This document shows, piece by piece, positions 25,221 through 63,630 of a stretch of DNA of 64,000 nucleotides. The notes under the pieces are model-generated. The model made no database searches and had not been told where the DNA came from. It saw only the letters and a list, made by a program, of their open reading frames with translations. Origin of the DNA: Escherichia phage vB_EcoM_DE17; sequence record OP595146.1; one strand, given 5' to 3'. Both the position numbers and the translations under genes were made by a program. The stretch's first letter is position 1, and every line of letters starts with the position of its first letter.

Positions 25221-25477
25221 GTAAGCCTCTTTTAAGTAACTATTAAGTTTTAATCTTTTATCTTAACGTATTCTATACGTTATACTTTAAAGCTTTTTAA
25301 AAGCTATTAAATAATCTTTTAAGAGTTTTAAAGTATCTGTATAGTTAAACTGTTAAGTAACCTTTTAAGTAAAAACCCACTTCGCAAAGATTAACACCTT
25401 GTCAAGTACATTGTCAACTTGCTTTTTATAATTTTTTGCAGTAATGTATGAGGTTAATGATTTTAGAGGGAGTAAAA
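25221..25477. promoter_or_regulatory. AT-rich divergent intergenic region between leftward early unit and rightward DNA polymerase unit
   Basis: About 255 bp non-coding; tandem cttgtcaa/attgtcaa boxes at 25399..25418; TATAAT at about 25424. Confidence 0.45.
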
Positions 25478-28177
25478 ATGGAAAACGTAGATTTTAAAAA
25501 CTTACATTTAGTTGGTGATACAGAAACTGATGGTTTACTCCTTGAGTTCACTAAAGTGCACGTAATGGCTTTCGCAGACTATAAATCTGACGATGAAGAG
25601 CCACCTGTATGGGTCTTTACAGATGAGCCTATCCTCGGTCACAAATACACCAAGTACATCAAGGGTGGTTTGCGTGAAGGTATTGAGTTTGCGTTAAAGG
25701 CAAAACGACTTTGCATCCATAATGGTCTGGGTTATGACTGGTGGGTATTCAATCACATTGCACCTGATTTGTGGAACTTTGATAATCCAAAGTGTAAACC
25801 GTGGAGTAATTTCTTTCAGGATTCTCTTATCCAATCTCGTGTTCAGTGGATGGATAGGCCAACTCCAAAAGGCTATAAAGGTGCTCATGGCTTGGCGGCA
25901 TGGGGTGCTCGTGTTGGTGTCCGTAAACCAGAGATTGAACATTGGGGTGTGTGGAATGCAGAAATCTTCACTCGTGTTGTAGAAGATATCCGTATTAACG
26001 CCAAAACTAAACGTGCACTGGATAATGAATACCTGAAGTTAAAGAAGTGTGGTATAGACACTTATGAAACCTATATGCGAGCTAAAGAAACATCTTTCTG
26101 GATGAGTCAACAAGCTATCAATGGTTGGAAAGCCGATAAAGAGCTTATGGAGTTCCATGTAAAGGAACTTGACAAGTTGACTAATGAGCTTGCTTCGGAA
26201 GTTGAACCACATCTTCCTCCAACTATTAAGACCAAAGGTAAAGTTACTGGGGAAGAGTTTGCAAAAGCTTGGAATGAGTATGTTGAAGCATTCGGTCATG
26301 CAGATGGACTGAAGAGAATTACCAAGTACCCTAAGACAAAGTATCGTCAACAGGTACGTAACGGTGAGATGCAGACATACGAAATCAAGCCATTTGGTAA
26401 GCCAACTACAAAGATTTTTAACATTGAAAAGAGAAATTGCTATACACCAACCAACTCTGTAACTGGTGAAGAGTACAAGGAAGGTTTTGTAGCAATGAAG
26501 GATGCTCGTGCAATTTGCAACGAGTTGAATGCAAAGATTGGTAAGAAATGCAAAGACTGGAAGCCAGTAAAAACAGTTAAAACTGTGAAGTACTATAACA
26601 GTCATGTTGTTAATCACTTTGAACTAGAGTCAAGTCGCTACACAGGATTGATTGATGCACCATATACACCAATTGAGTTTGAAGTTTCTCGTATGACTCA
26701 GGTAGCAGTTGTTAAAGACTACTTAAAATCAGTTGGTTGGATTCCAGATGACTGGAACTACAAGAAAGACTCAGATGGTCGCCCTGTCAAAGTTTGTCGT
26801 TTCAAAGACAACAAAAAGATGATTACAAAGCATCCTAAGTGGCAGGAGATGGTGGAACGGTGTGGGTTGAGCTATGTTGAACACGAAGGTGTCCAGTACA
26901 TTGAGCATAACTGGTCTGTGAAGAAATACACAGATTTACTTGAGCCTTGCTTAATCCGCACTTCACCAAAACTTACTGAATCTTCTTATGATACGATTGA
27001 AGGTGAGCTTGGACAGAAGATTGCTAAGTACTATACTTTGATGCACCGACGCAGAACCATTGAGAACTCAAAGGATGATGAAAAAGGTTGGCTAAACCAG
27101 ATTCGTCCTGATGGTCGCCTTAGTGCTGGTGCAATGGTATTTGGTACTTCAACTGGACGTATGACACAATATGGTATTGTAAACGTACCGTCTGGTGCTG
27201 CTGTCTATGGGGAACCAATGAGGGCAGTGTGGATTTGTGAAGAGGGTACTAACGTTGTCTCTGTAGACATGAACTCAGCCCAGCTAGTTCTCCTTTGTAA
27301 CTTTATGGGTGATAAAGACTTCACCAAAGCGGTAACGCAAGGTAAAGAAGAGATTGAGTTTATTCGTCAAGAAGATGGACGCTATTACTGCAAACACTTT
27401 GATGAGTACCTCAACCCAGAGATTGATAAGTACCTTCGCTATGACTCTGAGAATGACCTGTACGTTGTCTATTCAGGGACTGATGCACACACACTGAACA
27501 GTATTTACTTTAGCTTGAATGATGAGCAGGATATCTTGACTTGTCGAGCCACTCAGGATGAGAATCTTCTCCATGAGATTAGTAAGGGTCGTAAAAAAGC
27601 TAAGAATGGTATCTATGCACTACTGTTCGGTGCAGGTGATGAGAAGTTTGCTAAGACGATTAAAGCTGCAACTACTCAGGAAGGTGCACTGACTAAACAG
27701 ACTTACTTTATTCGTTTGCCTAAAATTAAGAAGCTGCTAGATGACTTGGAAGCTGACTACAAAGCGACTAAAAAGGCACTTGAAGAGGTGTTTGGTAAGA
27801 CTGCTGCAATCTCTAAAGGAGGATTTGTAAAGGTTGCTGGGGCTTGGTTGTGGTGTAAATCTCCACACAAACTGTTGAACTATCTTTTGATGGGTTCAGA
27901 GGCTCAGATTCAAAATGAGGCAATTAACCTTGCTTGTCGTCGTATGATTGACGAAGGTTTGATGAAGTTGAATGGTCGTCAACCAGCTATTGGTGCTCGT
28001 TTGCTCTGCGCATATCACGATGAAACAAGCTGGGAATGTCCAGAAAGTATGACGGCAGAAGTGAAAGCAGTTACTGACTGGTATTATGGACAAGCTTCTA
28101 AGAACTTAGGTCTTAAGAAAGAAACACTTGTAACAGGTACTGGTAAGGTTGGTAAAAGCTGGCTTGAAGTGCACTAA
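25478..28177 (+). CDS. family A DNA polymerase
   Basis: Exo motif VGDTETDGL, O-helix-like RKKAKNGIYALLFGAG, motif C YHDE; start set to ATG at 25478 after GAGGGAG. Confidence 0.85.
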   Translation: MENVDFKNLHLVGDTETDGLLLEFTKVHVMAFADYKSDDEEPPVWVFTDEPILGHKYTKYIKGGLREGIEFALKAKRLCIHNGLGYDWWVFNHIAPDLWNFDNPKCKPWSNFFQDSLIQSRVQWMDRPTPKGYKGAHGLAAWGARVGVRKPEIEHWGVWNAEIFTRVVEDIRINAKTKRALDNEYLKLKKCGIDTYETYMRAKETSFWMSQQAINGWKADKELMEFHVKELDKLTNELASEVEPHLPPTIKTKGKVTGEEFAKAWNEYVEAFGHADGLKRITKYPKTKYRQQVRNGEMQTYEIKPFGKPTTKIFNIEKRNCYTPTNSVTGEEYKEGFVAMKDARAICNELNAKIGKKCKDWKPVKTVKTVKYYNSHVVNHFELESSRYTGLIDAPYTPIEFEVSRMTQVAVVKDYLKSVGWIPDDWNYKKDSDGRPVKVCRFKDNKKMITKHPKWQEMVERCGLSYVEHEGVQYIEHNWSVKKYTDLLEPCLIRTSPKLTESSYDTIEGELGQKIAKYYTLMHRRRTIENSKDDEKGWLNQIRPDGRLSAGAMVFGTSTGRMTQYGIVNVPSGAAVYGEPMRAVWICEEGTNVVSVDMNSAQLVLLCNFMGDKDFTKAVTQGKEEIEFIRQEDGRYYCKHFDEYLNPEIDKYLRYDSENDLYVVYSGTDAHTLNSIYFSLNDEQDILTCRATQDENLLHEISKGRKKAKNGIYALLFGAGDEKFAKTIKAATTQEGALTKQTYFIRLPKIKKLLDDLEADYKATKKALEEVFGKTAAISKGGFVKVAGAWLWCKSPHKLLNYLLMGSEAQIQNEAINLACRRMIDEGLMKLNGRQPAIGARLLCAYHDETSWECPESMTAEVKAVTDWYYGQASKNLGLKKETLVTGTGKVGKSWLEVH

Positions 28178-28238
28178 TTAGTATTGACAAGGTGCTCACG
28201 GAAGAGTACCTTATACTGTATCTTGTATAGGAGGTCAT

Positions 28239-28457
28239 ATGACACTTTCAGAGATTGAAGTTCAGTTGCAATGTGCTGGTTACTCTCAAAAAGAGATTGA
28301 AGGGATGTTTATCGTTCTTTGCAGTAGCTGTAGGAATTTGAAGGTAAACCCTGAAGTTCTACGTAGAGTCGATATCTTTATTGCTGGAGGCAAAATCGCA
28401 AAAGACAAGACAGGCTACTTAAAAGGTGAGCGTGTAAACATTGAGAGCTTATTATGA
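28239..28457 (+). CDS. hypothetical protein (paralogue of 28660..28872)
   Basis: 72 aa; C-terminus IFIAGGKIAKDKTGYLKGERVNIESL is near-identical to the neighbouring paralogue. Confidence 0.5.
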   Translation: MTLSEIEVQLQCAGYSQKEIEGMFIVLCSSCRNLKVNPEVLRRVDIFIAGGKIAKDKTGYLKGERVNIESLL

Positions 28458-28663
28458 GCCACCGTGGAAGAACCCATGCAGCGATGATGAAAGGTGCTTC
28501 AAAGGAGACTATCAAGAATCGTAAGCAGAAGTTGTTTGAGAGAATGAACAGGTTAATTGACAATTCATCTCTTTCAGGTTCTGAGAAAGTTTTCTTGAAA
28601 GGTAATCTGAAAAGCATTGCACAAGAACTTATTGACATTGAATATTGGAGACACCAAAAATGA
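28454..28663 (+). CDS. hypothetical basic protein
   Basis: 69-aa ORF between the two paralogues. Confidence 0.45.
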   Translation: MSHRGRTHAAMMKGASKETIKNRKQKLFERMNRLIDNSSLSGSEKVFLKGNLKSIAQELIDIEYWRHQK

Positions 28664-28872
28664 CACTTGCAGATGTTATCCAGCAACTTCACGACAATTG
28701 CTATACTCCAGAGTTGATTCAGGAAATGCTTATTGTAGTGATGCCTAGCAAGTTCGTAAAAGGTTTTAATCGTGACTCCTTAATGTCTGCGCATATCATT
28801 ATCGTTGACGGTAAGATTGCAAGGGACCGTACAGGAGTCCTTAAGGGTGAACGTATTAGTATTGACCTCTGA
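28660..28872 (+). CDS. hypothetical protein (paralogue of 28239..28457)
   Basis: C-terminus IIIVDGKIARDRTGVLKGERISIDL; start at ATG 28660 after GGAGA. Confidence 0.5.
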   Translation: MTLADVIQQLHDNCYTPELIQEMLIVVMPSKFVKGFNRDSLMSAHIIIVDGKIARDRTGVLKGERISIDL

Positions 28873-28891
28873 GTATTGGGGGGACATCAAA

Positions 28892-29047
28892 ATGAAACGC
28901 AAAGTAAAATTATTTAGTTTATATGGAAGAGTCGGTAAAGGTTTTGATTGGCAACTGCTACGTTCAGATGTTAAAAGCAATGAATTAGCACAGCTTATTA
29001 TAAACTATCGACGAACGTACAGAGAGGTAGAACATCGTGAACAGTAG
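28892..29047 (+). CDS. hypothetical small protein
   Basis: 51 aa from ATG 28892 (MKRKVKLFSLYGRVGKGFDWQ) with G-rich RBS. Confidence 0.35.
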   Translation: MKRKVKLFSLYGRVGKGFDWQLLRSDVKSNELAQLIINYRRTYREVEHREQ

Positions 29048-29060
29048 TAGGAGAAGTATT

Positions 29061-29297
29061 ATGTGGAAAGCAGTAATTGTGTTTGGTGTTATCTTTCTGT
29101 CTGGCTGTAACCCATCTTACGAGGACAAAAACGCTTCTTATAGCCTCCCACCAGAGATGCAAGATTGCAAAGTCTATAAGTTAAATGGGGATGCAATAAG
29201 CACAGATATTGTTGTTGTCAGATGTCCAAACTCTCAAACGACAACATCTTATAGATATGGTAAAAATAGCCAATCACACACTACGGTTATTGAGTGA
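29061..29297 (+). CDS. small lipoprotein
   Basis: MWKAVIVFGVIFLSGC: hydrophobic signal plus lipobox LSGC; AGGAGA RBS upstream. Confidence 0.5.
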   Translation: MWKAVIVFGVIFLSGCNPSYEDKNASYSLPPEMQDCKVYKLNGDAISTDIVVVRCPNSQTTTSYRYGKNSQSHTTVIE

Positions 29298-29307
29298 GGT
29301 TTTTACG

Positions 29308-29514
29308 ATGCAGGTCTTAATAAACTATATCTACTGTTATGATGTTGTTCACTCCACTACAACGGTAGCTCAACGTAACCCAATCGTCCCACGAGAGGGT
29401 GAGTTGGTTAGAATCGAGGGTTGGACTTACACTGTGGAAAGCATCATTCATAAGTTTGATGTTGCTGGTGATGTTCAAGTTATTGACGTAGAGATTGGTG
29501 GTAAGAGAAAATGA
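29308..29514 (+). CDS. hypothetical protein
   Basis: 68 aa from ATG 29308. Confidence 0.4.
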   Translation: MQVLINYIYCYDVVHSTTTVAQRNPIVPREGELVRIEGWTYTVESIIHKFDVAGDVQVIDVEIGGKRK

Positions 29515-29714
29515 CTGTAGAAGATAAATTTAAGAACGCAGTTCTTACAGAAGATGGTGAGCTTGAAACATTCATTCTTCGTGTTGATGGTAAGCTATTC
29601 CGGTGTCGTTGTGGGTCAAACTGTTTTCACAAACCTGATAACACAAAGTTAGACATATACGAGTGTAATAACTGTGGGGTAAGGTTCTTAGGTAAGATTA
29701 AGGATATGCAATGA
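29511..29714 (+). CDS. zinc-ribbon protein (paralogue of 30039..30230)
   Basis: FRCRCGSNCFHKPD...YECNNCG Cys4 pattern shared with paralogue. Confidence 0.5.
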   Translation: MTVEDKFKNAVLTEDGELETFILRVDGKLFRCRCGSNCFHKPDNTKLDIYECNNCGVRFLGKIKDMQ

Positions 29715-29977
29715 AGATAACTCAAGAAATGAAGGGATTGTATGAGAAAAGTCTGGTAATCCCTCCAAAGACTAATACTAAGAAATTACTATTTGACTCT
29801 TGGTTAGATAGCTCTACATATGGGAAGTACTACCTAAAGGTTATTTCATTTGGTGAAAGACCAGAATCACCAGAATTTTATGAGAGCTACATAAATGAGC
29901 AAGATAAAAAATGTTTATGTTTCTACGAAAAACACATGGAATTAGTAAATTCAATTAATCACGAAAGAGAGCTTTGA
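29711..29977 (+). CDS. hypothetical protein
   Basis: 88-aa ORF. Confidence 0.45.
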   Translation: MKITQEMKGLYEKSLVIPPKTNTKKLLFDSWLDSSTYGKYYLKVISFGERPESPEFYESYINEQDKKCLCFYEKHMELVNSINHEREL

Positions 29978-30038
29978 TGGTTGTGCTTGGCACTACTTCT
30001 ACTCAAAAGGTTGCATAGCTTGTGAGGCAAGAGATAAA

Positions 30039-30230
30039 ATGAACAAAGAAGATAAACATAAAAATGCTGTACGAACTCCTGATGGAAAGGTTCAATCCTT
30101 CATCCTTACAGTTGGTGGAAAGCCATTTCGTTGCCACTGCGGAGCAAACTGTTTTCATAAACCAGATAAAAATGACTTAGAGCTTTACGCATGTAATGCT
30201 TGCAATACTTGGTATCACTCAGAGGAATAA
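30039..30230 (+). CDS. zinc-ribbon protein (paralogue of 29511..29714)
   Basis: FRCHCGANCFHKPD...YACNACN; same N-terminal KHKNAV pattern. Confidence 0.5.
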   Translation: MNKEDKHKNAVRTPDGKVQSFILTVGGKPFRCHCGANCFHKPDKNDLELYACNACNTWYHSEE

Positions 30231-30231
30231 A

Positions 30232-31335
30232 ATGACAATTCTGTACAAACAAAATAAAGATAACTCTTTTAACGTCTGGTCATGCGTTGCTGTAGGTGAC
30301 AAAGTTATTACAACCTACGGTAAAGAAAATGGCAAGATGATGTTTGAAGAGTATACAGCAGAACCTAAAAACATCGGTAAAAAGAACGAGCGTAACGCTG
30401 AACAGCAAGCTCTCTTTGAAGTCGCTGCTAAGTATAAAAAGCAAGTTGACCGCAAAGGTTATGCTTACACAAAAGAATCTGCACAGAATACTGAGAAGGT
30501 AGGTGTGCAGCTTGCTCATGATGCTGCAAAGGTTAGTCATGCAAAGTATCTGAAGTTCCCTGCTGATGCTCAACCGAAACTTGATGGTGTCCGTTGTAGG
30601 ATTTCAAGGCACTTAAGTATTGGCAGTGTATTCACAGCATACTCTCGTGAAAATACTGTTTACAAAATCCCTACTGAACTAATACCTGATATTATGGCAA
30701 TGTTAAGGCTCCACAAAGATGTTGATGAATTTGATGGAGAGATTTATGCTCATGGGTGGGACTTAGAAGATATTGTCTCTATGATTAAAAATGAAGACAA
30801 TCCTGACCGTCATCTACTTAAGTTTTACTGGTATGATATCTGTGACAGTACTAAGACGTGGCCTGAGCGTAGAGATATTATTGAGACTTCACCATTGAAT
30901 GACTTTAGAGACGGCTGTAAAGTTGTTCCTGTTAAGTCTCGTCGTGTAAATTCTTGGGAAGAGTTTGATGAAGCTCATGATAAGTGGGTTGAAGCTAAGT
31001 TTGAAGGTGCAATGTACCGTTCAATCTCTGAAGACTCCTTCTATGAGTGCTGTCACCGTTCATACTTCTTGATTAAGCACAAGAAGATGCACACTGAAGA
31101 GTTTAAAGTGACTGGTGTAAAGACTGATAAGCGTGGTCATGGCAAGTTCGTTGTAGAGACTCTTCCTAACGTCTTTGTAGATGTCTCATGGAAGACTACT
31201 CATGAGAAGAAACAGTATCTTGCTGAGCATCCTGAAGAGTTTATTGGGAAGCCTTTAACGGTTCAGTTCCAGAAGATGACTCGTAAGGGTTCTTTACAGT
31301 TCCCTGTTGGGCTAGTTATCAGGGATTACGAATAA
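30232..31335 (+). CDS. ATP-dependent DNA ligase
   Basis: Adenylation motif I KLDGVR; size typical of small phage ligases; start at ATG 30232. Confidence 0.75.
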   Translation: MTILYKQNKDNSFNVWSCVAVGDKVITTYGKENGKMMFEEYTAEPKNIGKKNERNAEQQALFEVAAKYKKQVDRKGYAYTKESAQNTEKVGVQLAHDAAKVSHAKYLKFPADAQPKLDGVRCRISRHLSIGSVFTAYSRENTVYKIPTELIPDIMAMLRLHKDVDEFDGEIYAHGWDLEDIVSMIKNEDNPDRHLLKFYWYDICDSTKTWPERRDIIETSPLNDFRDGCKVVPVKSRRVNSWEEFDEAHDKWVEAKFEGAMYRSISEDSFYECCHRSYFLIKHKKMHTEEFKVTGVKTDKRGHGKFVVETLPNVFVDVSWKTTHEKKQYLAEHPEEFIGKPLTVQFQKMTRKGSLQFPVGLVIRDYE

Positions 31336-31341
31336 AAGTTG

Positions 31342-31369
31342 TTGACATAGAAAATTTGGTGAGTATACT
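31342..31369 (+). promoter_or_regulatory. strong sigma70-like promoter
   Basis: TTGACA-N16-TATACT on plus strand right after ligase stop; -10 overlaps inverted repeat ggtgagta...tactcacc. Confidence 0.55.
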
Positions 31370-31543
31370 GAGCAGCATAAACTAACAGGTACTCACCAGC
31401 ATCACTTAAGAGTCTTTTAAGAGGGTTTTAAGTAATGTATTGCACGGCAAGGCGATGTGAAGTCTGGTTTTGCATGGTGTGGTCTGGTATGGAAGGATGG
31501 CAGTAGCCTTATAAAAAATCTGCCAAATAAGCTATAAAATCTG

Positions 31544-31572
31544 TTGACAAGTCAGGTGTTATAGCTTATTTT
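31544..31572 (+). promoter_or_regulatory. sigma70-like promoter upstream of secreted-protein gene
   Basis: TTGACA-N17-TATTTT about 45 nt upstream of ATG 31617. Confidence 0.45.
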
Positions 31573-31616
31573 TATGCTCAATGTAATACAAAATTTAATA
31601 TAACTTTGAGGTCATT

Positions 31617-32000
31617 ATGAAAAAGATTTTATTAGCTGCTGCAATGGTTATGTCAATGAATTTACCAGTCAATGCAACAGAACTCCCAAATGTGGACTTA
31701 TCAGGTGTTCCAGAAGACACTTGTCAGATTGTTAAAGGTGTTGCTTTGACTAATGGTGAGTTACTTAAACCAATCTCTGAAGAGTCTTTAACAGAGATGA
31801 CTGATAAGGTAACTGACTATCAGTATCGTGTTCTTGCAGAGTATTTCCTGCAATCTGCAAATATTAAAGAGAAGCACCCTGATGATATTGATGTACAGGC
31901 TATGCTCAATCATCGTATTCAGTTTAAAGAAGATTTGATGCAAAAAGCTATGTATGGTGTTGAGTATTTCTTAGAAAACAGAAGCTGCACAGGTATTTGA
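31617..32000 (+). CDS. secreted/periplasmic protein with cleavable signal peptide
   Basis: MKKILLAAAMVMSMNLPVNA then TE: classic Sec signal; two Cys in mature part; preceded by strong promoters. Confidence 0.55.
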   Translation: MKKILLAAAMVMSMNLPVNATELPNVDLSGVPEDTCQIVKGVALTNGELLKPISEESLTEMTDKVTDYQYRVLAEYFLQSANIKEKHPDDIDVQAMLNHRIQFKEDLMQKAMYGVEYFLENRSCTGI

Positions 32001-32001
32001 T

Positions 32002-32214
32002 ATGGCTCTTAAAAAGTTACATCCTAGAAGTGGTTATGGTAAGATAATTGATGATACAGACGGCTTTACAGTCTTTACAGTTATCTGTCAAGATGATTCA
32101 CAGATTGAAAAGGCTCTTGATGATTATCTTAACGATGAACGTGAAAAGGTTAGGGCTACAAACATAGATTCATTGATTGACACTTCACGCAAACGGAAGA
32201 AGAAAGATGAATGA
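32002..32214 (+). CDS. hypothetical protein
   Basis: 70 aa, basic C-terminus. Confidence 0.45.
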   Translation: MALKKLHPRSGYGKIIDDTDGFTVFTVICQDDSQIEKALDDYLNDEREKVRATNIDSLIDTSRKRKKKDE

Positions 32215-32506
32215 GACTTTTGACCCTTATGCTCCACAAGATGATTGGGAGGCTGACAGAGAGGTTGAAATGGAGAGTTATATTTGTCCAATGGATGTAG
32301 ACGAAATGAGAGATTTCGTTGCACATCGTTTTAAGAGAGAGATTAAATCCAGAGGTCTTTCTCAAGAGCAAGTTGCTAAAATTTGTGGTATCTCTCAGGC
32401 TCGCGTATCCAACATAATCCACCTCACTGGTAATGTCTCCCTTGAGTATATGTTGGAAGTATGCGAAAAATTTGGTGTTAATTTTAATTTAAGGCTGGCA
32501 GATTAA
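32207..32506 (+). CDS. helix-turn-helix DNA-binding protein (XRE-like)
   Basis: LSQEQVAKICGISQARVSNI is a classic HTH; start at ATG 32207 overlapping upstream gene. Confidence 0.55.
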   Translation: MNETFDPYAPQDDWEADREVEMESYICPMDVDEMRDFVAHRFKREIKSRGLSQEQVAKICGISQARVSNIIHLTGNVSLEYMLEVCEKFGVNFNLRLAD

Positions 32507-32507
32507 T

Positions 32508-32867
32508 ATGAAACGTGAAAATATTATCCACTCTGAAAACTTCGCATTAGGCTTTTATGGTGTACCTACTCACCTTGAAAAGTATTATGGTGTGAAGATT
32601 CTTTCCAATCTCATTATTGCTTATAAAGATGGTAAGATTAAGCATACTGAGAAGAAACGTGTCATGGGTTATATGGCTGTAGGTTCAGCAATCTCAAACA
32701 TTAAGCTGGAAACAACTAGTAGCCAGATTGTAAAAGACCACTTCATCAAAGAGCTTTACCACAATCTTGATGGTGTAGCTGTTCAGGCTGTTTGGCTGGA
32801 TGTTGATGGTCACAATTACACAAGCTTCGTTTTCAAAAATGATGACATTAAGTGTCTGTTCCCATAA
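32508..32867 (+). CDS. hypothetical protein
   Basis: 119-aa ORF. Confidence 0.5.
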   Translation: MKRENIIHSENFALGFYGVPTHLEKYYGVKILSNLIIAYKDGKIKHTEKKRVMGYMAVGSAISNIKLETTSSQIVKDHFIKELYHNLDGVAVQAVWLDVDGHNYTSFVFKNDDIKCLFP

Positions 32868-32880
32868 TAGGTGATTAACT

Positions 32881-33396
32881 ATGATTGATGTCTACTTACA
32901 AGATGCTCATGCAGATTTCCTTAAAGTGATGCTTAAAAAGTTTATGGCTTCACAGTGTGAGAATGAAGCATCTTTTAAAATAGTTACATGTGGCGATGAA
33001 GCTGGTTTTGTTGAGATTGAACATGAAGGTACTGGAAAGATTGTTTGTAAGTTACCTGATAGTATGTTCTCTAACACATTCTTAACAAAGACTAGTATAA
33101 ATGTTAAGCTTGTACCTCAGATTGAAACATACTCTGGTACAGATTACCCTAAAGGTTTTAAGTCACTGATGAAGTACTTCTTAGATGACTTTGTGAGTAA
33201 TCTTCTGAGAGAGGTAAAAGAAAGTCGTACAGTGTTGACTGTAGAGAACATGGGAGGAACTATCAGGGTTACTTCTGACTGTTTTGTTATGAGCCTCTTC
33301 GACTTCGTTCCTAAGAACTTTGATGGTATTCTGGATGAAGAAGATGACTGTGTAGATTTTATATTGGTTCTTGAACCAGTTTTTGAGGTTAAATAA
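32881..33396 (+). CDS. hypothetical protein
   Basis: 171-aa ORF. Confidence 0.5.
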   Translation: MIDVYLQDAHADFLKVMLKKFMASQCENEASFKIVTCGDEAGFVEIEHEGTGKIVCKLPDSMFSNTFLTKTSINVKLVPQIETYSGTDYPKGFKSLMKYFLDDFVSNLLREVKESRTVLTVENMGGTIRVTSDCFVMSLFDFVPKNFDGILDEEDDCVDFILVLEPVFEVK

Positions 33397-33657
33397 ATGA
33401 AAATTGAACACTGCTATGAGTCTGACGGAGCACCTATCCGTTGTCCACATTGTGGATGCACAGACTTACAAGGTGAGGTAAGTGAAATAGTCAACGGTCA
33501 TATTGCTGAAGAGAGTACAAGGTGTACAGGGTGTAGTGAAGTTATTGCTTTCTGGGCTTATGGTTCATACCAGCCTACGCCACACTTAATCTACCATAGC
33601 AATAAAGCTGTGAAGAATGTTATCAACTGGTTCATTAAGAAAGGGTTTACAAAATGA
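33397..33657 (+). CDS. zinc-ribbon protein
   Basis: CPHCGC ... CTGC Cys4 pattern. Confidence 0.5.
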   Translation: MKIEHCYESDGAPIRCPHCGCTDLQGEVSEIVNGHIAEESTRCTGCSEVIAFWAYGSYQPTPHLIYHSNKAVKNVINWFIKKGFTK

Positions 33658-34199
33658 TTAAATTAATCTTTGCAAGTGGTGAAAATGGTGAGTTTGGTAC
33701 TCCAACTGGTATGCCGTGGCCTCGACATAAACAGGACATGCAAGAGTTTAAGAGACTCACTAAAAACAACTTAGTAGTGATGGGTAATGAGACTTTCAAG
33801 ACTCTGGGGAGTAAACCTTTACCAGAACGTGCAAACCTAATCTTAACAAATTCTGTACCATACTTAGGCATAGACTTTGGCAAAGATGAGGTAATGTATG
33901 CTAAGGCCAGCAAAGAATCCTTTGGAGCATTTTTGAACTATCTTGATAGCTCTATTGATGAAGATGTCTTTGTAATTGGTGGTGCAGGTGTCCTTGTCAA
34001 TGCTTTACCATATGCTGGTGTAGTTTTCCATACAGTTTTCCATAAAGTTACTGAAGAGGCCACTGTGTATTTACCTTTTGAAAACTTTTTTGAGAAGTTG
34101 TATGATAACCGTGTATTTACAAAGGTACAGTCAAAACCATCAGAGGATGGTAAAGCAACCTTTGAAATTTATGTTCCACAAGTAAAAGGGCACTTTTGA
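33654..34199 (+). CDS. folA: dihydrofolate reductase
   Basis: N-terminal IFASGENGEFG...MPWP and overall DHFR pattern; immediately upstream of thymidylate synthase. Confidence 0.8.
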   Translation: MIKLIFASGENGEFGTPTGMPWPRHKQDMQEFKRLTKNNLVVMGNETFKTLGSKPLPERANLILTNSVPYLGIDFGKDEVMYAKASKESFGAFLNYLDSSIDEDVFVIGGAGVLVNALPYAGVVFHTVFHKVTEEATVYLPFENFFEKLYDNRVFTKVQSKPSEDGKATFEIYVPQVKGHF

Positions 34200-34200
34200 T

Positions 34201-35100
34201 ATGTCACAAGCAGATACAAGTTACAAAAATATCCTGAACCATGTTTTATCAGTTGGTGAACTGCGTACTACACGAACTGGAGATGTTATCTCTGCTTTTG
34301 CTCCACCTCAGTTTCGATTTGATATGCGAACTGGTTTCCCGCTCTTAACATCTAAACAGGTGTTTACACGGCAAGTTATCGGGGAAGCTTTATGGTTCCT
34401 GAATGGTGAGAATAAGCTGGGTGAACTCCGTTACCGCACTTGGGGTGAAAATGATGGGGAACGCTGGACTATCTGGTCAGATGATTTTAAACGCTGGTTA
34501 AGCTCTAATTATTCTTCTGAACAAGATTGGTTAGAGGATGCAGGTGGAAGAATCTATGGGGTGCAGTGGAGAAACTTTGAAGGTCATAACGGTTGTGTTG
34601 TAGACCAGTTAGAGACCTTAGTAACGAAGATGAAGGGTGATATCACAGACCGTTACATGCTTGTTAATGCTTGGAATGCAGCAGATATTGCAGCAAACTC
34701 AATGGCTTTAGCACCTTGTCATGTTCTGTTTCAGATTTATATCACTAATGAGGGTGAAGTTGACTTACAATGGTATCAGCGTTCAGTGGACACCTTCTTA
34801 GGACTTCCGTTTAATATTGCATCTTACGGTTTTATTCTGGAAGTTCTTTGTAAGATGACTGGATACACTCCACGGTACTTGATAGGTGTCTTTGGAGATA
34901 CTCAGATTTATCAGAACCATATGAAGCAGGTTTATGAACTGATGAACAATGAAGAGTTCCATGCACCAACTTTTGAGATTGGTATCCCACTTAACACTTT
35001 AAGTGACTTAAAACATCTTACAGCAAGTGATTTTATTGGTGGGATTAATAACTACCAACATGCAGGTAAGATTGAAGCACCTCTGTCAGTAGGCAAGTAA
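34201..35100 (+). CDS. thyA: thymidylate synthase
   Basis: ThyA signatures including catalytic-Cys region ALAPCHVLFQ; uninterrupted, no intron. Confidence 0.9.
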   Translation: MSQADTSYKNILNHVLSVGELRTTRTGDVISAFAPPQFRFDMRTGFPLLTSKQVFTRQVIGEALWFLNGENKLGELRYRTWGENDGERWTIWSDDFKRWLSSNYSSEQDWLEDAGGRIYGVQWRNFEGHNGCVVDQLETLVTKMKGDITDRYMLVNAWNAADIAANSMALAPCHVLFQIYITNEGEVDLQWYQRSVDTFLGLPFNIASYGFILEVLCKMTGYTPRYLIGVFGDTQIYQNHMKQVYELMNNEEFHAPTFEIGIPLNTLSDLKHLTASDFIGGINNYQHAGKIEAPLSVGK

Positions 35101-41992: not shown

Positions 41993-47376
<5,384 letters not shown>

Positions 47377-59078: not shown

Positions 59079-59153
59079 TGGAGAATCCGAAGGGACTCGA
59101 ACCCTTATAAACCTGTTTTGCAGACAGGCACATATCCATTTCTGTCACGGATT
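59079..59153 (-). tRNA. tRNA-Cys (anticodon GCA)
   Basis: Hand-folded: acceptor gaatccg/cggattc, T-arm AAGGG-TTCGAGT-CCCTT, loop CTGCAAA, CCA encoded. Confidence 0.7.
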
Positions 59154-59157
59154 CAAA

Positions 59158-59250
59158 TTGGAGGAAGATACCAGACTTGAACTGGTACACCGATTTCTCA
59201 GCTACTGGCAGTTTAGCAAACTGCTCCCTTACCTTTTAGGGTTAATCTTC
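59158..59250 (-). tRNA. tRNA-Ser (anticodon GCT), class II
   Basis: 93 nt; anticodon stem GCAGT/ACTGC, loop TTGCTAA, long variable arm, T-arm ACCAG-TTCAAGT-CTGGT. Confidence 0.65.
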
Positions 59251-59252
59251 CA

Positions 59253-59987
59253 TTATTTCTGTAATGCGTTCTTCATTTCTGGTGTTGCAATAGTGTCAAT
59301 TACACCAGTTTTACAAGCATCATCAAACCAGTCTGGTAAGATACCTGCTAAGAACCCATTGATATTCGTTTTAAGGTACTCTGCAATAAGGGCAGCTTCT
59401 TCTTCAATCATCTGCACAACTTCATCTGCATAAGCTGTAATCTTTGAGATACCTTCATTAATCTTACTAACAGCTTGGTTAGCTAAATCAGAAATAGTAT
59501 CAAGACCTTTATCAATAGCATCCTGTAAGTCACTTAATACATCATTAACACCGTCTAGTGCACTGTTAATCGTATCCATAGCTTTTTGACCATACTCTGT
59601 AGCAACACCCATAATACCACTAAATGGTGTACAGCCAACTTGTTCACCTGCTGCACCCATAACATTAGAATAGCCTTTTGCTACCTGCATACGTGAGGAA
59701 AACTCATCAATGGACTTTTGACCATAATCTGTCAGTGTCTTAGTAGTTGATGTAGTGCTTGTCAGACTCGTTGTAAAGCTGTTAAGCAGAACTGTTGTAA
59801 GTCCAGCAGCAACAAGTTTATCTTTTATTGTAGGGTCTGTTACAGAGCTAATAGAGCTTACAAGTGATGTAGAGGCAGCTACGGTTCCACCGAGAACTGC
59901 TGCACCAGTAATAAGGGGATTAGAAAACCCTCTACCGGTTTTTAAGAGATTAAAAATCTCCTTACCTTGTTCTGTCATCTCTTTCAT
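59253..59987 (-). CDS. hypothetical Ser/Thr-rich protein embedded in tRNA cluster
   Basis: About 244 aa; start set to ATG at 59987 (MKEMTEQ) so it does not overlap the tRNA at 60004..60080; ends 3 nt before tRNA-Ser. Confidence 0.45.
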   Translation of the reverse strand: MKEMTEQGKEIFNLLKTGRGFSNPLITGAAVLGGTVAASTSLVSSISSVTDPTIKDKLVAAGLTTVLLNSFTTSLTSTTSTTKTLTDYGQKSIDEFSSRMQVAKGYSNVMGAAGEQVGCTPFSGIMGVATEYGQKAMDTINSALDGVNDVLSDLQDAIDKGLDTISDLANQAVSKINEGISKITAYADEVVQMIEEEAALIAEYLKTNINGFLAGILPDWFDDACKTGVIDTIATPEMKNALQK

Positions 59988-60003
59988 TAAGCACCTTTGG
60001 AAT

Positions 60004-60080
60004 TGGTAGTCCAGTGGGATTTGAACCCTCTTCTCATGTTTTTCAGACACGCGCTTTAACCATATAAGCTACTTGGACTA
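60004..60080 (-). tRNA. tRNA-Phe (anticodon GAA)
   Basis: T-loop TTCAAAT, anticodon loop CTGAAAA; one T-stem mismatch in hand fold. Confidence 0.6.
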
Positions 60081-60085
60081 TAAAT

Positions 60086-60161
60086 TGGGGTGACCTACGG
60101 GATTTGAACCCGTATAGACCATGTTCACAGCATGGGTCATTACCATTTATGATAAGGCCAC
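60086..60161 (-). tRNA. tRNA-His (anticodon GTG)
   Basis: Anticodon stem CCATG/CATGG, loop CTGTGAA; T-arm ACGGG-TTCAAAT-CCCGT. Confidence 0.65.
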
Positions 60162-60192
60162 ATTTAAGGACTCTCGTAAGAACCCTTAGAAG

Positions 60193-60268
60193 TGGCAGCG
60201 GCATAAGGATTTGAACCTTAATAAGACAGCTTCAGAGACTGCTGCATTGCCAGTTATGCTATACCGCT
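60193..60268 (-). tRNA. tRNA, probably Gln (anticodon CTG)
   Basis: T-arm TAAGG-TTCAAAT-CCTTA; anticodon loop CTCTGAA on a stem with two G-U pairs. Confidence 0.5.
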
Positions 60269-60273
60269 AAATT

Positions 60274-60352
60274 TGGTACTCCATATCGGATTCGAACCGA
60301 TACATAACACAGATTTTAAGTCTGGCCTCTCTGCCAATTGGAGTAATGGAGC
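60274..60352 (-). tRNA. tRNA, isotype uncertain (loop suggests anticodon TAA)
   Basis: T-arm ATCGG-TTCGAAT-CCGAT, CCA encoded; loop CTTAAAA; short variable arm is atypical for Leu. Confidence 0.5.
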
Positions 60353-60354
60353 AT

Positions 60355-60429
60355 TGGCGGGGGATGTTGGAATTGAACCAACTTCTTCGATTTCAAAGAC
60401 CGAGGTTTTAACCTTGTAAACTAATCCCC
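60355..60429 (-). tRNA. tRNA-Gln (anticodon TTG)
   Basis: T-arm GTTGG-TTCAATT-CCAAC, loop CTTTGAA; 1-72 mismatch in hand fold. Confidence 0.55.
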
Positions 60430-60438
60430 TTTAAATCT

Positions 60439-60996
60439 TTACTTTCTCAGTGGATGAATAAAGAATGCCAACATAACTCTTTCCCTTGAGAATGCTCTTT
60501 CTTCTGGGACAACACTTTTTAGCTTCCATCCAACATAAATTCTCCAGTAGAATTGTTTACCAAAGACTTTAATTGATGGGATAAAAGCGAATAATCCCCA
60601 AGCATTACTGTTCCACATTAGGAGATAACCTGTCTGATTATCTTCAGGGTTAGAACTTACGTTGATATTACCTTTCCACTTAGTAACATCTTTTACATCT
60701 CTTCCTAATACATGGTAAGAGAAGTTATAAGCTTTGTTTCTCCAGAGCCAACCAACTCTCTGCATATAGACACCAAGCTTGCCAATCTTTCTAATCTTAG
60801 CCCATCGTTCGACATGCCCTTTATCACCATCAATTGGGTTGTCATATGTCTCCATCCATCTGAAGCCGAAAGGTAAGTGTCCTTTCTTCTCACTGTAAAA
60901 TGGAACTACAAAAGGTGCTAAGATAACTGCTAAGATTGCTGCAAATGGTTCTAACAAAGCTAAGAAAATCCATGAAGCATACTTCAAATATCTCAT
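60439..60996 (-). CDS. membrane protein embedded in tRNA cluster
   Basis: 185 aa; N-terminal hydrophobic helix ASWIFLALLEPFAAILAVILAPFVV; flanked by tRNAs. Confidence 0.5.
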   Translation of the reverse strand: MRYLKYASWIFLALLEPFAAILAVILAPFVVPFYSEKKGHLPFGFRWMETYDNPIDGDKGHVERWAKIRKIGKLGVYMQRVGWLWRNKAYNFSYHVLGRDVKDVTKWKGNINVSSNPEDNQTGYLLMWNSNAWGLFAFIPSIKVFGKQFYWRIYVGWKLKSVVPEERAFSRERVMLAFFIHPLRK

Positions 60997-61015
60997 CTAA
61001 ATAGCCTCTTTAAAT

Positions 61016-61091
61016 TGGCGCAGGATAAGGGATTCGAACCCCTATTAACAGCTTCGTAGACTGTTGCTCTATCCATTTGAACTAATCCTGC
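61016..61091 (-). tRNA. tRNA-Arg (anticodon ACG)
   Basis: Acceptor gcaggat/atcctgc, T-arm GGGG-TTCGAAT-CCCTT, loop CTACGAA. Confidence 0.7.
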
Positions 61092-61204
61092 TTACCTACA
61101 AGAACACCATACAGTTTTTCACAAGAGTTGTTTTTACGCCTGTTTTTGAATGACGCTATAAACTTTTTTGCAATTGACTTATTACTCATAGTGTTCTCCT
61201 AAAA

Positions 61205-61283
61205 TTGGTGTTCCAAGACGGATTCGAACCGTCACTAGTACAAGGTTTGAGCTTGCATCCTCTGCCAATTGGGATACTGGAAC
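61205..61283 (-). tRNA. tRNA, isotype uncertain (loop suggests anticodon CAA)
   Basis: T-arm GACGG-TTCGAAT-CCGTC; D-stem ATCC/GGAT; loop CTCAAAC; short variable arm. Confidence 0.5.
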
Positions 61284-61284
61284 A

Positions 61285-61359
61285 TGGTACTCACTAAAGG
61301 ACTTGAACCTTTTTCTTCATCTTGTAAGGGTGATGTTTTACCATATAAACTAAGCGAGT
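61285..61359 (-). tRNA. tRNA, possibly Val (anticodon TAC)
   Basis: T-arm AAAGG-TTCAAGT-CCTTT; loop CTTACAA with one stem mismatch. Confidence 0.5.
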
Positions 61360-61455
61360 ATGAAAGAGGTCTGAAGTTGTGCCGCTAACTCAACTCCGTG
61401 GGATTTGTTACGGTCTTCAGTTGACTCAAAGCGGTCTTTCACTTGACCTCTAAAT

Positions 61456-61531
61456 TGGTGCTCCCACAAGGATTCGAACCCTGATAAGTTGCTTACAAGG
61501 CAACCGTAATAGCCAATTATACGATAGGAGC
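61456..61531 (-). tRNA. tRNA-Thr (anticodon TGT)
   Basis: Perfect anticodon stem GTTGC/GCAAC, loop CTTGTAA. Confidence 0.7.
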
Positions 61532-61538
61532 ATTAATT

Positions 61539-61613
61539 TGGAGCATCCAGAGGGAATCGAACCCTCAACATCAGTTTGGAAGACTGTAATTTTCCCGTTT
61601 AAACTATGGATGC
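61539..61613 (-). tRNA. tRNA-Gly (anticodon TCC)
   Basis: T-arm GAGGG-TTCGATT-CCCTC, loop CTTCCAA. Confidence 0.65.
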
Positions 61614-61619
61614 ACTAAT

Positions 61620-61695
61620 TGGTGGAGTCACTGAGAATTGAACTCAGTTCCCAAGTTTGCAAAACTCGAATTTTAACCATATAAACTATGACCCC
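61620..61695 (-). tRNA. tRNA-Ala (anticodon TGC)
   Basis: Acceptor GGGGTCA with G3-U70 pair typical of tRNA-Ala; loop TTTGCAA. Confidence 0.7.
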
Positions 61696-61701
61696 ATTGT
61701 T

Positions 61702-61777
61702 TGGTACAGGTGGAGGGAATTGAACCCATCGTCTTACTGATTAAGAGTCAGCCGCATAACCATTTTGCTACACCTGC
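61702..61777 (-). tRNA. tRNA-Lys (anticodon CTT)
   Basis: Loop CTCTTAA on stem GCTGA/TCAGT; T-loop TTCAATT. Confidence 0.6.
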
Positions 61778-61784
61778 ATTAATT

Positions 61785-61862
61785 TGGTAGGAGACAAGGG
61801 ATTCGAACCCTCAAACACCAACTTCTAAGGATGGTAGGTTTACCAATTACCGTCAATCTCCC
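61785..61862 (-). tRNA. tRNA, isotype uncertain (loop suggests anticodon TAG)
   Basis: T-arm GAGGG-TTCGAAT-CCCTT, CCA encoded; loop CTTAGAA; D-arm fold ambiguous. Confidence 0.5.
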
Positions 61863-62116
61863 ATTAAATCTTTTTAGAGAACTTCTAAGAACCTAAGCAA
61901 CAAGGTTCCACAACAAGCTGTAATAACCTTAGAAGCCCTCTAAAAAGACCTAAATTGGTCTTTGCATAGTCTTGTTTAATCCGGTGACTAGAACCTTTGG
62001 AGAGCTTGATATTATCTCTTCTCCGTGACACCTACTAGGTGCTTTATCAGTGTGTACGACAATACACGAGGGATACCAAAGCAACATCCGAATGAAGCTT
62101 GGCTTTAAATCTTATT

Positions 62117-62207
62117 AGGCGGTAAGTAAAGGAGTCGAACCCTCACCGTATCTCTACAGTGGCAACTGTTTTCAAGACAGTTTGGCTACCATTAGCCGCT
62201 ACCTACC
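62117..62207 (-). tRNA. tRNA-Ser (anticodon TGA), class II
   Basis: 91 nt; perfect anticodon stem ACTGT/ACAGT, loop CTTGAAA, long variable arm; 3' CCA not encoded. Confidence 0.7.
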
Positions 62208-62220
62208 CCTAATAAGACTT

Positions 62221-62303
62221 TGGCATGGGACGGAGGAGTTGAACCCCTTTGAAACGGTTTTGGAGGCCGTTGCTCATGCCTTAGAGTCTTAACATCGTCC
62301 CAC
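62221..62303 (-). tRNA. tRNA-like gene, isotype uncertain (possibly Trp, anticodon CCA)
   Basis: T-loop TTCAACT and paired acceptor ends; 83 nt; internal fold ambiguous; candidate loop CTCCAAA. Confidence 0.45.
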
Positions 62304-62445
62304 ACTATAATTCGAAGCTTACCGTATTTTCGCAACACTGTAAAGCCCCTTCTCAGATTATTTACATGTTCTGGAAAACATGAGATACAGACCACCTCCT
62401 TACACGGAGACCCGATAAGGTCGTCTAAGCAATCTGCTAACTATT

Positions 62446-62522
62446 TGGCACACCCTACAGGATTCGAACCTGTAACTAACGATTTAGAAGACCGTTGCTC
62501 TATCCAATTGAACTAAGGGTGC
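62446..62522 (-). tRNA. tRNA-Arg (anticodon TCT)
   Basis: T-arm ACAGG-TTCGAAT-CCTGT, loop CTTCTAA; D-arm near-identical to tRNA-Arg(ACG). Confidence 0.7.
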
Positions 62523-62814
62523 ATTAATCTTTAAAGACTCTCTTAGAAAGCCCTTAAAGATGCCCACCTTATTAATCATACCGTGGGCGAGTACGCCAAA
62601 TTCTTTGATGAGGGATTGGAAGACCTCACTGGTGTTTAGCCTATCAAGCTACTGCCAGAAAAACATTGTCGTTTGCATTTATTTTAAGTTTGCAAAATAG
62701 ACGCTACGCAACGAAAACTATTCAGAATATGTACAACAAATTTCCCCACATTGTGTTACGTCTAACACTCATGTATTGGTGTTTGAATTATACATATTAT
62801 GAAGTATTTTAGTT

Positions 62815-62843
62815 ACTATAAAGTGGTCACACCTCAATGTCAA
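62815..62843 (-). promoter_or_regulatory. sigma70-like promoter inside tRNA cluster
   Basis: Minus strand TTGACA-N17-TATAGT in an AT-rich spacer between tRNA-Ile and the tRNA-free region 62523..62810. Confidence 0.45.
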
Positions 62844-62858
62844 CAACTTTATTGAAAT

Positions 62859-62934
62859 TGGTACTGGTAGGTGGAATCGAACCACCGATGTTCCCTTATC
62901 AGGGGAGTGTTATAACCTTCTTAACTATACCAGC
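62859..62934 (-). tRNA. tRNA-Ile (anticodon GAT)
   Basis: T-arm GGTGG-TTCGATT-CCACC, loop CTGATAA. Confidence 0.65.
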
Positions 62935-62935
62935 T

Positions 62936-63012
62936 TGGAGGTTCAGATGGGAATCGAACCCACATTCATAGGGCTTATGAAACCCCTGCATTACCTTATC
63001 TGCGACTGAACC
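62936..63012 (-). tRNA. tRNA-Met (anticodon CAT)
   Basis: Loop TTCATAA on stem GGGGT/GCCCT; T-arm GTGGG-TTCGATT-CCCAT. Confidence 0.65.
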
Positions 63013-63016
63013 ATAT

Positions 63017-63092
63017 TGGTAGAAGTGGAGGGATTCGAACCCATCGCCTGTCAGATTAAAAGTCTGCCGCATCACCATTCTGCTACACTTCC
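63017..63092 (-). tRNA. tRNA-Lys (anticodon TTT)
   Basis: Loop CTTTTAA; acceptor and T-arm similar to the tRNA-Lys(CTT) copy. Confidence 0.65.
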
Positions 63093-63236
63093 ATTAAATC
63101 ATCTTTGTAGATAAGCTACCCAGACTTGCTTAAGGTCTGTAGCGATGTGCATTGTTGGGTTTAAATCTAGAATTTACCCTTTCACCCTTTGTGGTCGCAT
63201 ACTCACAGGTAAGCTTAATAGCTCACCTACAAAGAT

Positions 63237-63380
63237 AATTACCAGACCGTTGTTTATCATCTTAAGTGCTACCATTACACCAACTCGACATCTGCCGAGT
63301 GAAGGAATCGAACCTTCGCCTTTTCTTTACCGGAGAAATAGATTGTTTAAGTTTTGCTGTAAACGGTCTTCTGTAAATTT
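63237..63380. repeat. repeat copy 1 (attaccagaccgt ... ttttgctgtaaacggtcttctgtaaattt) carrying a tRNA-like T-arm insert
   Basis: Terminal motifs shared with copy 2; the two ends can pair (agaccgt / acggtct); about 95 nt between them includes gccgagt-GAAGG-aatcgaa-CCTTC with no matching 5' acceptor. Confidence 0.5.
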
Positions 63381-63546
63381 GTTGAGCCAGACCAAGTTTA
63401 AATTTTTCAAAATTAAATTGGCTTGAAATTTTAAGTAACTTGCTGAATTTGGTCTTCTGCTCCTTTAAAGAATACTCGTAAGAACTCTTTAAGGGAGGGG
63501 CTAAATAGCCCTCTCAAAACATCATCTTGAAATACTTATTATAATT

Positions 63547-63624: not shown

Positions 63625-63630
63625 TTTATT

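Follow-up and report, generated by a model that had tools for sequence, protein, structure and literature searches.

A solo VIPR guide RNA gene in a Felix O1-like phage carries the code of its relatives' vipr gene

Our analysis of a 64,000-nucleotide stretch of Escherichia phage vB_EcoM_DE17 (sequence record OP595146.1; the whole stretch is called the window below) identifies the element at positions 31429-31535, between an ATP-dependent DNA ligase gene and the open reading frame (ORF) of a 127-amino-acid (aa) protein, as a homologue of the guide RNA (vrRNA) of VIPR (Viral Interference Programmable Repeats), type II, SUSP1 clade. The code of this guide spells vipr, the gene for the protein that VIPR guides work with, and the phage itself appears to have no vipr of its own. 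A solo guide that is aimed at vipr and sits in a Vipr-less phage is a variant not described in the two preprints on VIPR. We consider it rather probable that the element is a guide-only anti-VIPR device, which uses the Vipr of a co-infecting rival to silence that rival's own vipr.

VIPR was introduced in two 2026 preprints (bioRxiv 10.64898/2026.04.26.720920 and bioRxiv 10.64898/2026.04.26.720927), which present it as a minimal RNA-guided DNA-binding system and propose that it predates CRISPR. According to both, the effector Vipr is a RAMP protein of small size, vap stands for an accessory gene, and each GGY of the guide is occupied by one Vipr protomer; the NN pairs with double-stranded DNA so that every third base is skipped, and binding represses transcription. 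Both also report that SUSP1-clade guides are mostly directed against an E. coli satellite phage. The vrRNA itself is described as 9-16 YNNGG repeats followed by a tail of ~40 nucleotides (nt) with a pseudoknot in the SUSP1 clade, and perturbation of GGY abolishes silencing in the published assay (bioRxiv 10.64898/2026.04.26.720920).

The window comes from a Felix O1-like phage (Felixounavirus): over 1.1 kb around the intergenic region it shares 96-99% identity with Felix O1-like phages, Escherichia phage vB_EcoM-Ro111lw (complete genome, 86,950 bp) being the nearest relative and Felix O1 itself 96% identical. The parts of the guide RNA gene, together with the hairpin that follows it, are these.

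31403-31433, + strand: 5' box CACTTAAGAGTCTTTTAAGAGGGTTTTAAGT, a hairpin just before the repeats in the minimum-free-energy fold, conserved in all modules of the same type.
31429-31493, + strand: vrRNA repeat tract of 13 NNGGY units, from a phased-run scan and homologous arrays.
31489-31535, + strand: vrRNA 3' tail, near-invariant in all relatives, including Moogle and SUSP2.
31498-31503 and 31520-31525, + strand: tail stem S1, TGGCAG with CTGCCA, present in the minimum-free-energy fold.
31504-31512 and 31527-31534, + strand: putative tail stem S2, TAGCCTTAT with ATAAGCTA, drawn by eye.
31525-31575, + strand: 13-bp perfect palindrome, AAATAAGCTATAA (31525-31537) and TTATAGCTTATTT (31559-31571), with a 21-nt loop and then a T-run.

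The 13 units read TAAGT, AATGT, ATTGC, ACGGC, AAGGC, GATGT, GAAGT, CTGGT, TTTGC, ATGGT, GTGGT, CTGGT and ATGGA, and we take units 2-12 (31434-31488) as the guide core. A run of 13 units in phase is unique in the window on both strands, the longest run in 20 shuffles being 4-6 units, and a repeat search found no copy of the intergenic-region sequence elsewhere in the 64 kb. All 13 units keep the second G and 12 of the 13 the pyrimidine; the full GGY is canonical in six of the eleven core units (55%), the others having AGT, TGT or TGC. When the intergenic region was aligned from 29 relatives, the same site was found to hold one to three modules, each made up of a conserved box, 8-17 degenerate NNGGY pentamers and a conserved tail. 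A second box type, AAAAGGTCTTTAAAGAGGGTCTTTT, occurs among these relatives, and an analogous hairpin is possible for it (judged by eye). Across 561 units, G occupies position 3 in 78% and C in none, T occupies position 5 in 82%, and position 4 is G in all of them since the detection rule demanded it; positions 1-2 (NN) are free and hypervariable, and the number of units also varies strongly among homologous arrays.

Stems S1 and S2 make an H-type pseudoknot possible in the tail of the window. Because this tail type hardly varies, the pseudoknot was assessed on the internal tails of the relatives, and there it is backed by covariation, with 90% of cells paired, six compensatory pairs and 0 of 500 shuffles as good. 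In Citrobacter phage Moogle the 117 nt from the array end to the ribosome-binding site keep ~95% identity, whereas the product of the downstream ORF is only 34% identical. Searches of Rfam returned tRNAs only for the whole window at gathering thresholds and no match for 31300-31650 by E-value, and the element goes unmentioned in the Felix O1 genome paper (PMC3185647).

That these repeats are VIPR guides follows from what accompanies them in other viruses. When IMG/VR was scanned for exact occurrences of seven GGT in phase, the matches listed included, besides simple repeats, numerous unrelated viral contigs in which degenerate arrays of this kind stand in long tandem series, and in at least 26 unrelated loci an ORF of ~200 aa adjoins the arrays, mostly just upstream. 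Likewise, ORFs of 195 and 146 aa lie between the ligase region and the arrays in wV8- and ASO1B-type Felixounaviruses, Moogle and SUSP2. Matches to phrog_4652 were obtained with the Felix-type 195-aa ORF and with each of the three diverse IMG/VR members tested, and the profile of the 195-aa family matches PDB 36pp, 'SUSP1 Vipr protein', at E=1e-42. The 195-aa ORF is vipr and the 146-aa ORF vap1, and in relatives the orthologous array site is directly downstream of vipr-vap1. Shared modules, the Vipr profile match and the published description together make 31429-31535 a vrRNA gene. It has the repeat run (13 units), the conserved structured tail and a natural target that fits at least 80% of its NN; what it lacks is a vipr (RAMP) gene alongside.

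To our minds, it is very improbable that the tract acts without Vipr, whether by forming a transcription-dependent R-loop or G-quadruplex element (a replication origin, for instance), by titrating ribosomes or an RNA-binding protein as a sponge, or by loading Rho on the opposite strand. Such proposals can point to a non-template strand that is G-rich and C-poor past a strong promoter (with no C at unit positions 3-4), to the many units that resemble Shine-Dalgarno fragments (AGGT, GAGGT) and to a location among replication genes. Yet they predict neither strict 5-nt phasing with a free NN, nor co-occurrence with Vipr genes across unrelated phages, nor the exact wobble-register NNx match to vipr set out below, and the GC skew of the window follows gene orientation only.

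Nine candidate roles were considered for the pentamer array and rejected: a TRAP-like protein-binding site, a CsrA or Hfq sponge, a Shine-Dalgarno-like ribosome sponge, boxA-type antitermination, an opposite-strand Rho loading site, an R-loop or G-quadruplex replication origin, a primase-site cluster, Chi-like recombination hot spots and the variable repeat of a diversity-generating retroelement. They were dropped because they account neither for pentamers in strict phase with a free NN, nor for the association with Vipr genes, nor for the match to the vipr code.

Very long vrRNA arrays occur in unrelated IMG/VR contigs (loci L036, L040, L041, L048, L051, L057, L061, L086, L102, L128, L129, L136 and L151), with up to 17 or more modules over >1 kb. 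The punctuation between their modules is short and lineage-specific (GGCAGTT in L129, AAGGCTAATGGGT in L041), and the arrays often adjoin recombination/replication or packaging genes. A family of ~165 aa, phrog_15946, recurs beside five of these loci and may be another vap.

What the guide is aimed at can be read off by the published 1-nt-skip rule, in which each unit contributes an NNx pattern. The guide core has its best match at one and the same site, vipr codons 156-166, in 18/18 vipr+ loci, with 18-21 of 22 positions fitting. Compared with vipr codons 155-167, all 13 units together fit at 22/26 positions (85%), the core at 21/22 and units 3-12 at 20/20, and the skipped base falls on the wobble position of the codon. 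Written as an NNx pattern, units 4-12 (18 specified bases) have eight exact matches in IMG/VR, every one of them in a contig of vipr+ Ounavirinae, the subfamily of Felix O1, and translating to the peptide EQITKEELLMVLE; the four that were placed (by contig coordinates for Moogle and wV8, or within Vipr-anchored loci) lie on the vipr sense strand. In 596 Gb of prokaryotic genomes the same pattern gives 15 matches, in unrelated metagenome-assembled genomes, with ~17 estimated by chance. Against four E. coli satellite islands, the window itself and Ro111lw, the window guide shows nothing above shuffled controls. The rule itself was controlled with other guides: several of Felix type match the satellite islands far above shuffled-unit controls (27/28, 21/22 and 28/32).

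These islands are recognisable by a gene that the phages share with them. The baseplate gene of the window (44300-45200, - strand) has up to 96% DNA identity to a 'phage baseplate protein' gene that is present in 474 of 5,426 complete E. coli genomes, and the island with this gene is the satellite that VIPR guides target. In strain M19 it lies between ymdF and wrbA, encodes no Vipr and has a vrRNA of its own (L154 6842-6906, - strand; promoter TTGACA-N17-TAAGAT). The islands (L154, L179, L180, L181) measure ~11-15 kb and contain recombinases, a tape-measure gene and an HNH gene; their insertion sites differ (ymdF-wrbA, yciI-tonB and a disrupted DUF72 gene upstream of yecD). Among the phages, those without vipr but with two modules (L011, L019, L023, L024, L027) keep guides that match the satellite (14/14, 21/24, 25/30).

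Neither tblastn with Vipr and Vap1 nor a Vipr hidden Markov model built from 19 diverse Viprs (positive control ASO1B, 2.6e-45) gave a match to the window or the complete Ro111lw genome. With vipr and vap1 absent from both, the guide is solo (an orphan) rather than part of a complete VIPR system. Similarly, a Vipr scan of IMG/VR found contigs of wV8, Moogle and SUSP type and did not find those of Felix O1 type, in which the ligase abuts the array. In the preprints the SUSP1 clade was defined by BLAST with Vipr (bioRxiv 10.64898/2026.04.26.720920, 10.64898/2026.04.26.720927), so that vipr-less genomes fell outside their survey; neither Felix O1 nor orphan guides are mentioned in the two.

All single-module vipr-less phages examined carry an anti-vipr guide. 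One allele is common to the window, Ro111lw and VpaE1_ev78, and a second, for the same site, occurs in Felix O1 and Si3; the window allele (TTx in unit 9) fits vipr with Leu163 TTG, the Felix O1 allele (CTx) vipr with CTG/CTA. Two further solo guides address other parts of the gene, namely L007 (IMG/VR contig 2706796256_000001), which fits at 18/18 positions against the antisense strand of vipr nt 40-65, and L017 (contig 3300029816_000002), with 17/20 against vipr nt 97-125, and all three target sites are in wobble register. Counted over unique guides, a vipr match at 85% or more of the NN is seen in 5/14 from vipr-less loci vs 0/54 from vipr+ loci (Fisher p=2e-4), and the remaining guides of the vipr-less phages match the satellite. 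Among 16 vipr alleles, 9 of the 18 variable sites at codon positions 1/2 lie in the three target windows, which cover 30/195 codons (odds ratio 6.3, p=4e-4). We see about an even chance that phages of Felix O1 type without Vipr, among them the classical typing phage Felix O1, carry guide-only anti-VIPR genes whose RNAs would, in mixed infections, capture the Vipr of a rival phage and turn it on the rival's own vipr operon. The traces of such an arms race would then be the guide alleles that fit particular target alleles and the surplus of non-wobble substitutions at the three vipr sites.

Around the guide RNA gene, the window has the following signals and ORF.

31342-31369, + strand: promoter P1, sigma70-like, TTGACA-N16-TATACT (11/12 match, the best in 28-36 kb).
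31358-31397, + strand: inverted repeat in the sequence, GGTGAGTA (31358-31365) and TACTCACC (31390-31397), with a 24-nt loop.
31544-31572, + strand: promoter P2, sigma70-like, TTGACA-N17-TATTTT (10/12 match, joint second with two others in 28-36 kb).
31617-32000, + strand: ORF of 127 aa, homologue of Felix O1 ORF87, phrog_4332, with a Shine-Dalgarno sequence at 31607-31612.

A first-pass annotation had already called both promoters from the bare sequence, and they are where it placed them. Promoter-like sites number 22 in 28-36 kb vs 22.0 by shuffling, so a consensus match alone is weak and it is quality and conservation that speak for P1 and P2: both are invariant across Felix-type relatives, and P2 is kept wherever a terminal vrRNA is present. 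Judging from this layout, P1 most likely drives the guide RNA and P2 the exported-protein operon. RNA from the predicted P1 start to the T-run has a more stable fold than every shuffle (z = -3.7). The AU-rich hairpin with its U-run (31525-31575), whose loop (palindrome 31525-31571) holds the -35 hexamer of P2, is probably terminator-like; it is absent from the calls of a terminator scan based on G+C.

As the same annotation said, an inverted repeat does sit at the -10 of P1, its left arm overlapping the first two bases of the hexamer. In ESh22 and EP1, which have a P1-type promoter directly before the ORF and no array between, an equivalent repeat has other arm sequences (TAGTGGGT/ACCCACTA in ESh22, TCCGGTAG/CTACCGGA in EP1), which amounts to covariation. 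The arms thus differ in three phage lineages and stay complementary, with the right arm ~20-30 nt downstream of the -10, so that the P1-repeat architecture is conserved and probably functional. This suggests a conserved promoter-associated structure or an operator. The added proposal that the repeat could fold the 5' leader does not hold for a P1 transcript, since the predicted P1 start is ~7 nt past the -10 and the left arm, upstream of it, would not be transcribed. By its appearance, P1 together with the repeat was the original promoter of the ORF operon; in Felix-type phages the vrRNA cassette and P2 lie between this promoter and the ORF.

The model of the first-pass annotation was that the whole 280 nt are a regulatory 5' leader for the exported protein, with the inverted repeat as operator or leader hairpin. 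The non-coding stretch after the ligase, whose ORF closes at 31335, is certainly there (31336-31616, 281 nt), and so are promoters, repeat and ORF; the run of pentamers and the 13-bp palindrome had escaped that annotation. The plain leader is what finds no support, ~105 nt between the promoters being a separate non-coding vrRNA gene. We regard the model as improbable, even though P1 and P2 are strong and conserved consensus matches, ESh22 and EP1 have promoter and repeat directly upstream of the ORF, and the gene of a Cro/C1-type helix-turn-helix (HTH) regulator follows the ORF at a distance of 200 nt. For it leaves unexplained the 13 phased pentamers, the conserved tail and the homology to vipr-linked vrRNA modules, and it sits badly with an intergenic length that ranges from 84 to 608 nt among relatives by gain and loss of whole modules, with a terminator-like hairpin between P1 and the ORF, and with a left repeat arm upstream of the predicted start. 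The HTH protein (window 32207-32506) is encoded two genes past the exported-protein ORF and belongs to Pfam HTH_3 (E=5e-10); it could be a binder of the P1 or P2 palindromes.

If the element is a guide-only anti-VIPR device, as we favour, P1 would transcribe an RNA with the 5' hairpin, the 13 NNGGY repeats and the structured tail, and this guide RNA would end at or before the AU-rich hairpin and U-run (31525-31575), while P2, from within the hairpin, would then transcribe the exported-protein operon. On co-infection by a vipr+ phage of wV8, Moogle or SUSP type, the Vipr of this rival would load onto the solo guide and be directed to its own vipr-vap1 operon, which would shut down the rival's VIPR system.

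Several points weigh against this scenario. What we observe is the homology of array and tail to vrRNAs, the absence of vipr, the code match to vipr and the population patterns; that P1 produces the guide, that a foreign Vipr takes it up and silences its target, and that the phage profits from this, we infer. Only 6/11 core units have the canonical GGY and, with GGY perturbation abolishing silencing in the published assay, Vipr loading of the window guide may be poor. Some 23 kb of the phage are outside the window, and vipr is taken to be absent there from its absence in Ro111lw. Of 66 Ounavirinae guides, not one fits the Ro111lw genome better than shuffled controls do; hence VIPR+ rivals do not obviously attack the vipr-less phage, and the benefit of disarming them is unexplained. 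The population statistics, which come from small counts and ignore shared ancestry, are suggestive. Finally, anti-vipr guides could be enriched in vipr-less genomes from plain incompatibility, in that one genome cannot keep both, and not from current use.

The last point leads to an explanation that we find unlikely, though less so than a leader or a Vipr-independent tract: the array may be a relic that was left after deletion of vipr-vap1, maybe because a self-targeting guide had silenced vipr beforehand, and has no present function, the region only supplying promoters. Consistent with a relic, vipr is absent from the window and Ro111lw; GGY content is 71% in vipr-less vs 83% in vipr+ loci, the window being among the lowest with its 55%; and if vipr and an anti-vipr guide are not stably kept together, this alone would give 5/14 vs 0/54. 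Against a relic, the NN code is intact at 21/22 positions, yet 5/11 first-G positions are non-G, and neutral decay should hit both alike; second G and pyrimidine have been retained almost throughout (13/13 and 12/13). Moreover, Felix O1 and E. coli phages share a conserved guide whose differences at the Y position are T/C changes, the two guide alleles track two target alleles, and the enrichment of variable vipr sites at target windows implies selection by such guides. On balance, we favour the anti-VIPR device.

Downstream of the guide, the 127-aa ORF does have the Sec signal and the two cysteines (Cys36, Cys124) ascribed to it by the first-pass annotation. By its sequence pattern, the signal peptide, MKK-ILLAAAMVMSMNLPV-NA|TE, has a positive n-region, a hydrophobic core and an AxA-type cleavage site (VNA|TE) without lipobox; this pattern and both cysteines are invariant even in orthologues of only 34-41% identity, which makes export of the protein plausible. 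Homologues are confined to Ounavirinae, at 92-99% identity in Felixounavirus and 31-41% in Mooglevirus and Suspvirus. The AF2/AlphaFold model (pLDDT, the predicted local distance difference test, of 85) has a disordered signal peptide and three helices (31-45, 55-86 and 93-121). The protein has no Pfam family, and its PHROG is one of unknown function. Foldseek against PDB found no match at E<=0.001, with Spackle absent from the 45 matches listed, and a fold search of BFVD returned only its own orthologue, from Shigella phage Sf13. An analogy to T4 Spackle, which had been proposed as well, is therefore not borne out beyond the fact that both are small phage proteins with a signal peptide and probably periplasmic: no similarity in sequence or fold was found, the window family is restricted to Ounavirinae, and a three-helix bundle is generic.

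On the + strand, the gene order around the guide runs from DNA polymerase via small ORFs to the ATP-dependent DNA ligase (30196-31335), the intergenic region and the 127-aa ORF, and on to a 70-aa ORF, the Cro/C1-type HTH protein, two unknown ORFs, dihydrofolate reductase and thymidylate synthase. GC skew (window 25400-35100) flips sign exactly with this ~10-kb + strand block from DNA polymerase to thymidylate synthase, which is embedded among - strand genes; skew tracks the direction of transcription and shows no origin signal. The junction at the ligase stop codon (window 31336; L001 1637-1790; L003 1637-1820) is an insertion hot spot, at which Ro111lw and UAB_Phi87-type phages have an insert of ~150 nt with an annotated 43-aa ORF on the opposite strand, VpaE1_ev78-type phages another sequence of ~180 nt, and wV8-type phages the vipr-vap1 cassette. 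A cluster of 23 tRNA genes (window 59079-63865, - strand) is typical of Felix O1-like phages.

As VIPR loci have been found via searches with the Vipr protein, guides in Vipr-less genomes are invisible to them. Our data show that solo guides exist in a well-known phage group and that in its single-guide phages they are aimed at vipr itself. If active, such a guide would mean that one virus re-programs the RNA-guided effector of another against the effector's own gene, adding a new layer to phage-phage and phage-satellite conflict. Annotation pipelines should, in our opinion, seek phased NNGGY arrays independently of vipr.

Of the known systems, SUSP1 type II VIPR is the closest: the window guide shares with it the YNNGG unit, the conserved tail, a comparable number of units (13) and a skipped base on the wobble position, and it occupies the genomic site of the terminal vrRNA in SUSP2, Moogle and wV8-type phages. 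Unlike that system, the window has no vipr or vap1; its one guide comes with a sigma70-type promoter (P1) of its own and is aimed at vipr and not at the E. coli satellite, and nearly half of its GGY motifs depart from the consensus. The E. coli satellite, a parasite of Ounavirinae, is reported to carry vrRNAs against other satellites (bioRxiv 10.64898/2026.04.26.720920, 10.64898/2026.04.26.720927). These, L154 for example, resemble the window in being guides without a Vipr gene in the same element, and having none of its own the L154 guide presumably relies on Vipr from another genome; they differ in that the carrier of the window guide is a full lytic phage and its target vipr, whereas satellite guides target satellites. 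A guide against a VIPR locus also has a precedent, as vrRNAs of the Pseudomonas fulva prophage clade target other VIPR systems, which their authors read as defensive (bioRxiv 10.64898/2026.04.26.720920, 10.64898/2026.04.26.720927). Those, though, are complete systems with their own Vipr, while the phage of the window would have to borrow the effector of its target. Such borrowing is familiar from guide- or repeat-only counter-measures to CRISPR (solitary repeats in phages, RNA anti-CRISPRs and mini-arrays), in which the RNA part alone exploits or subverts a foreign effector. RNA anti-CRISPRs act as decoys, however, whereas the window guide, with a different effector family and a different code, would redirect the effector onto its own gene.

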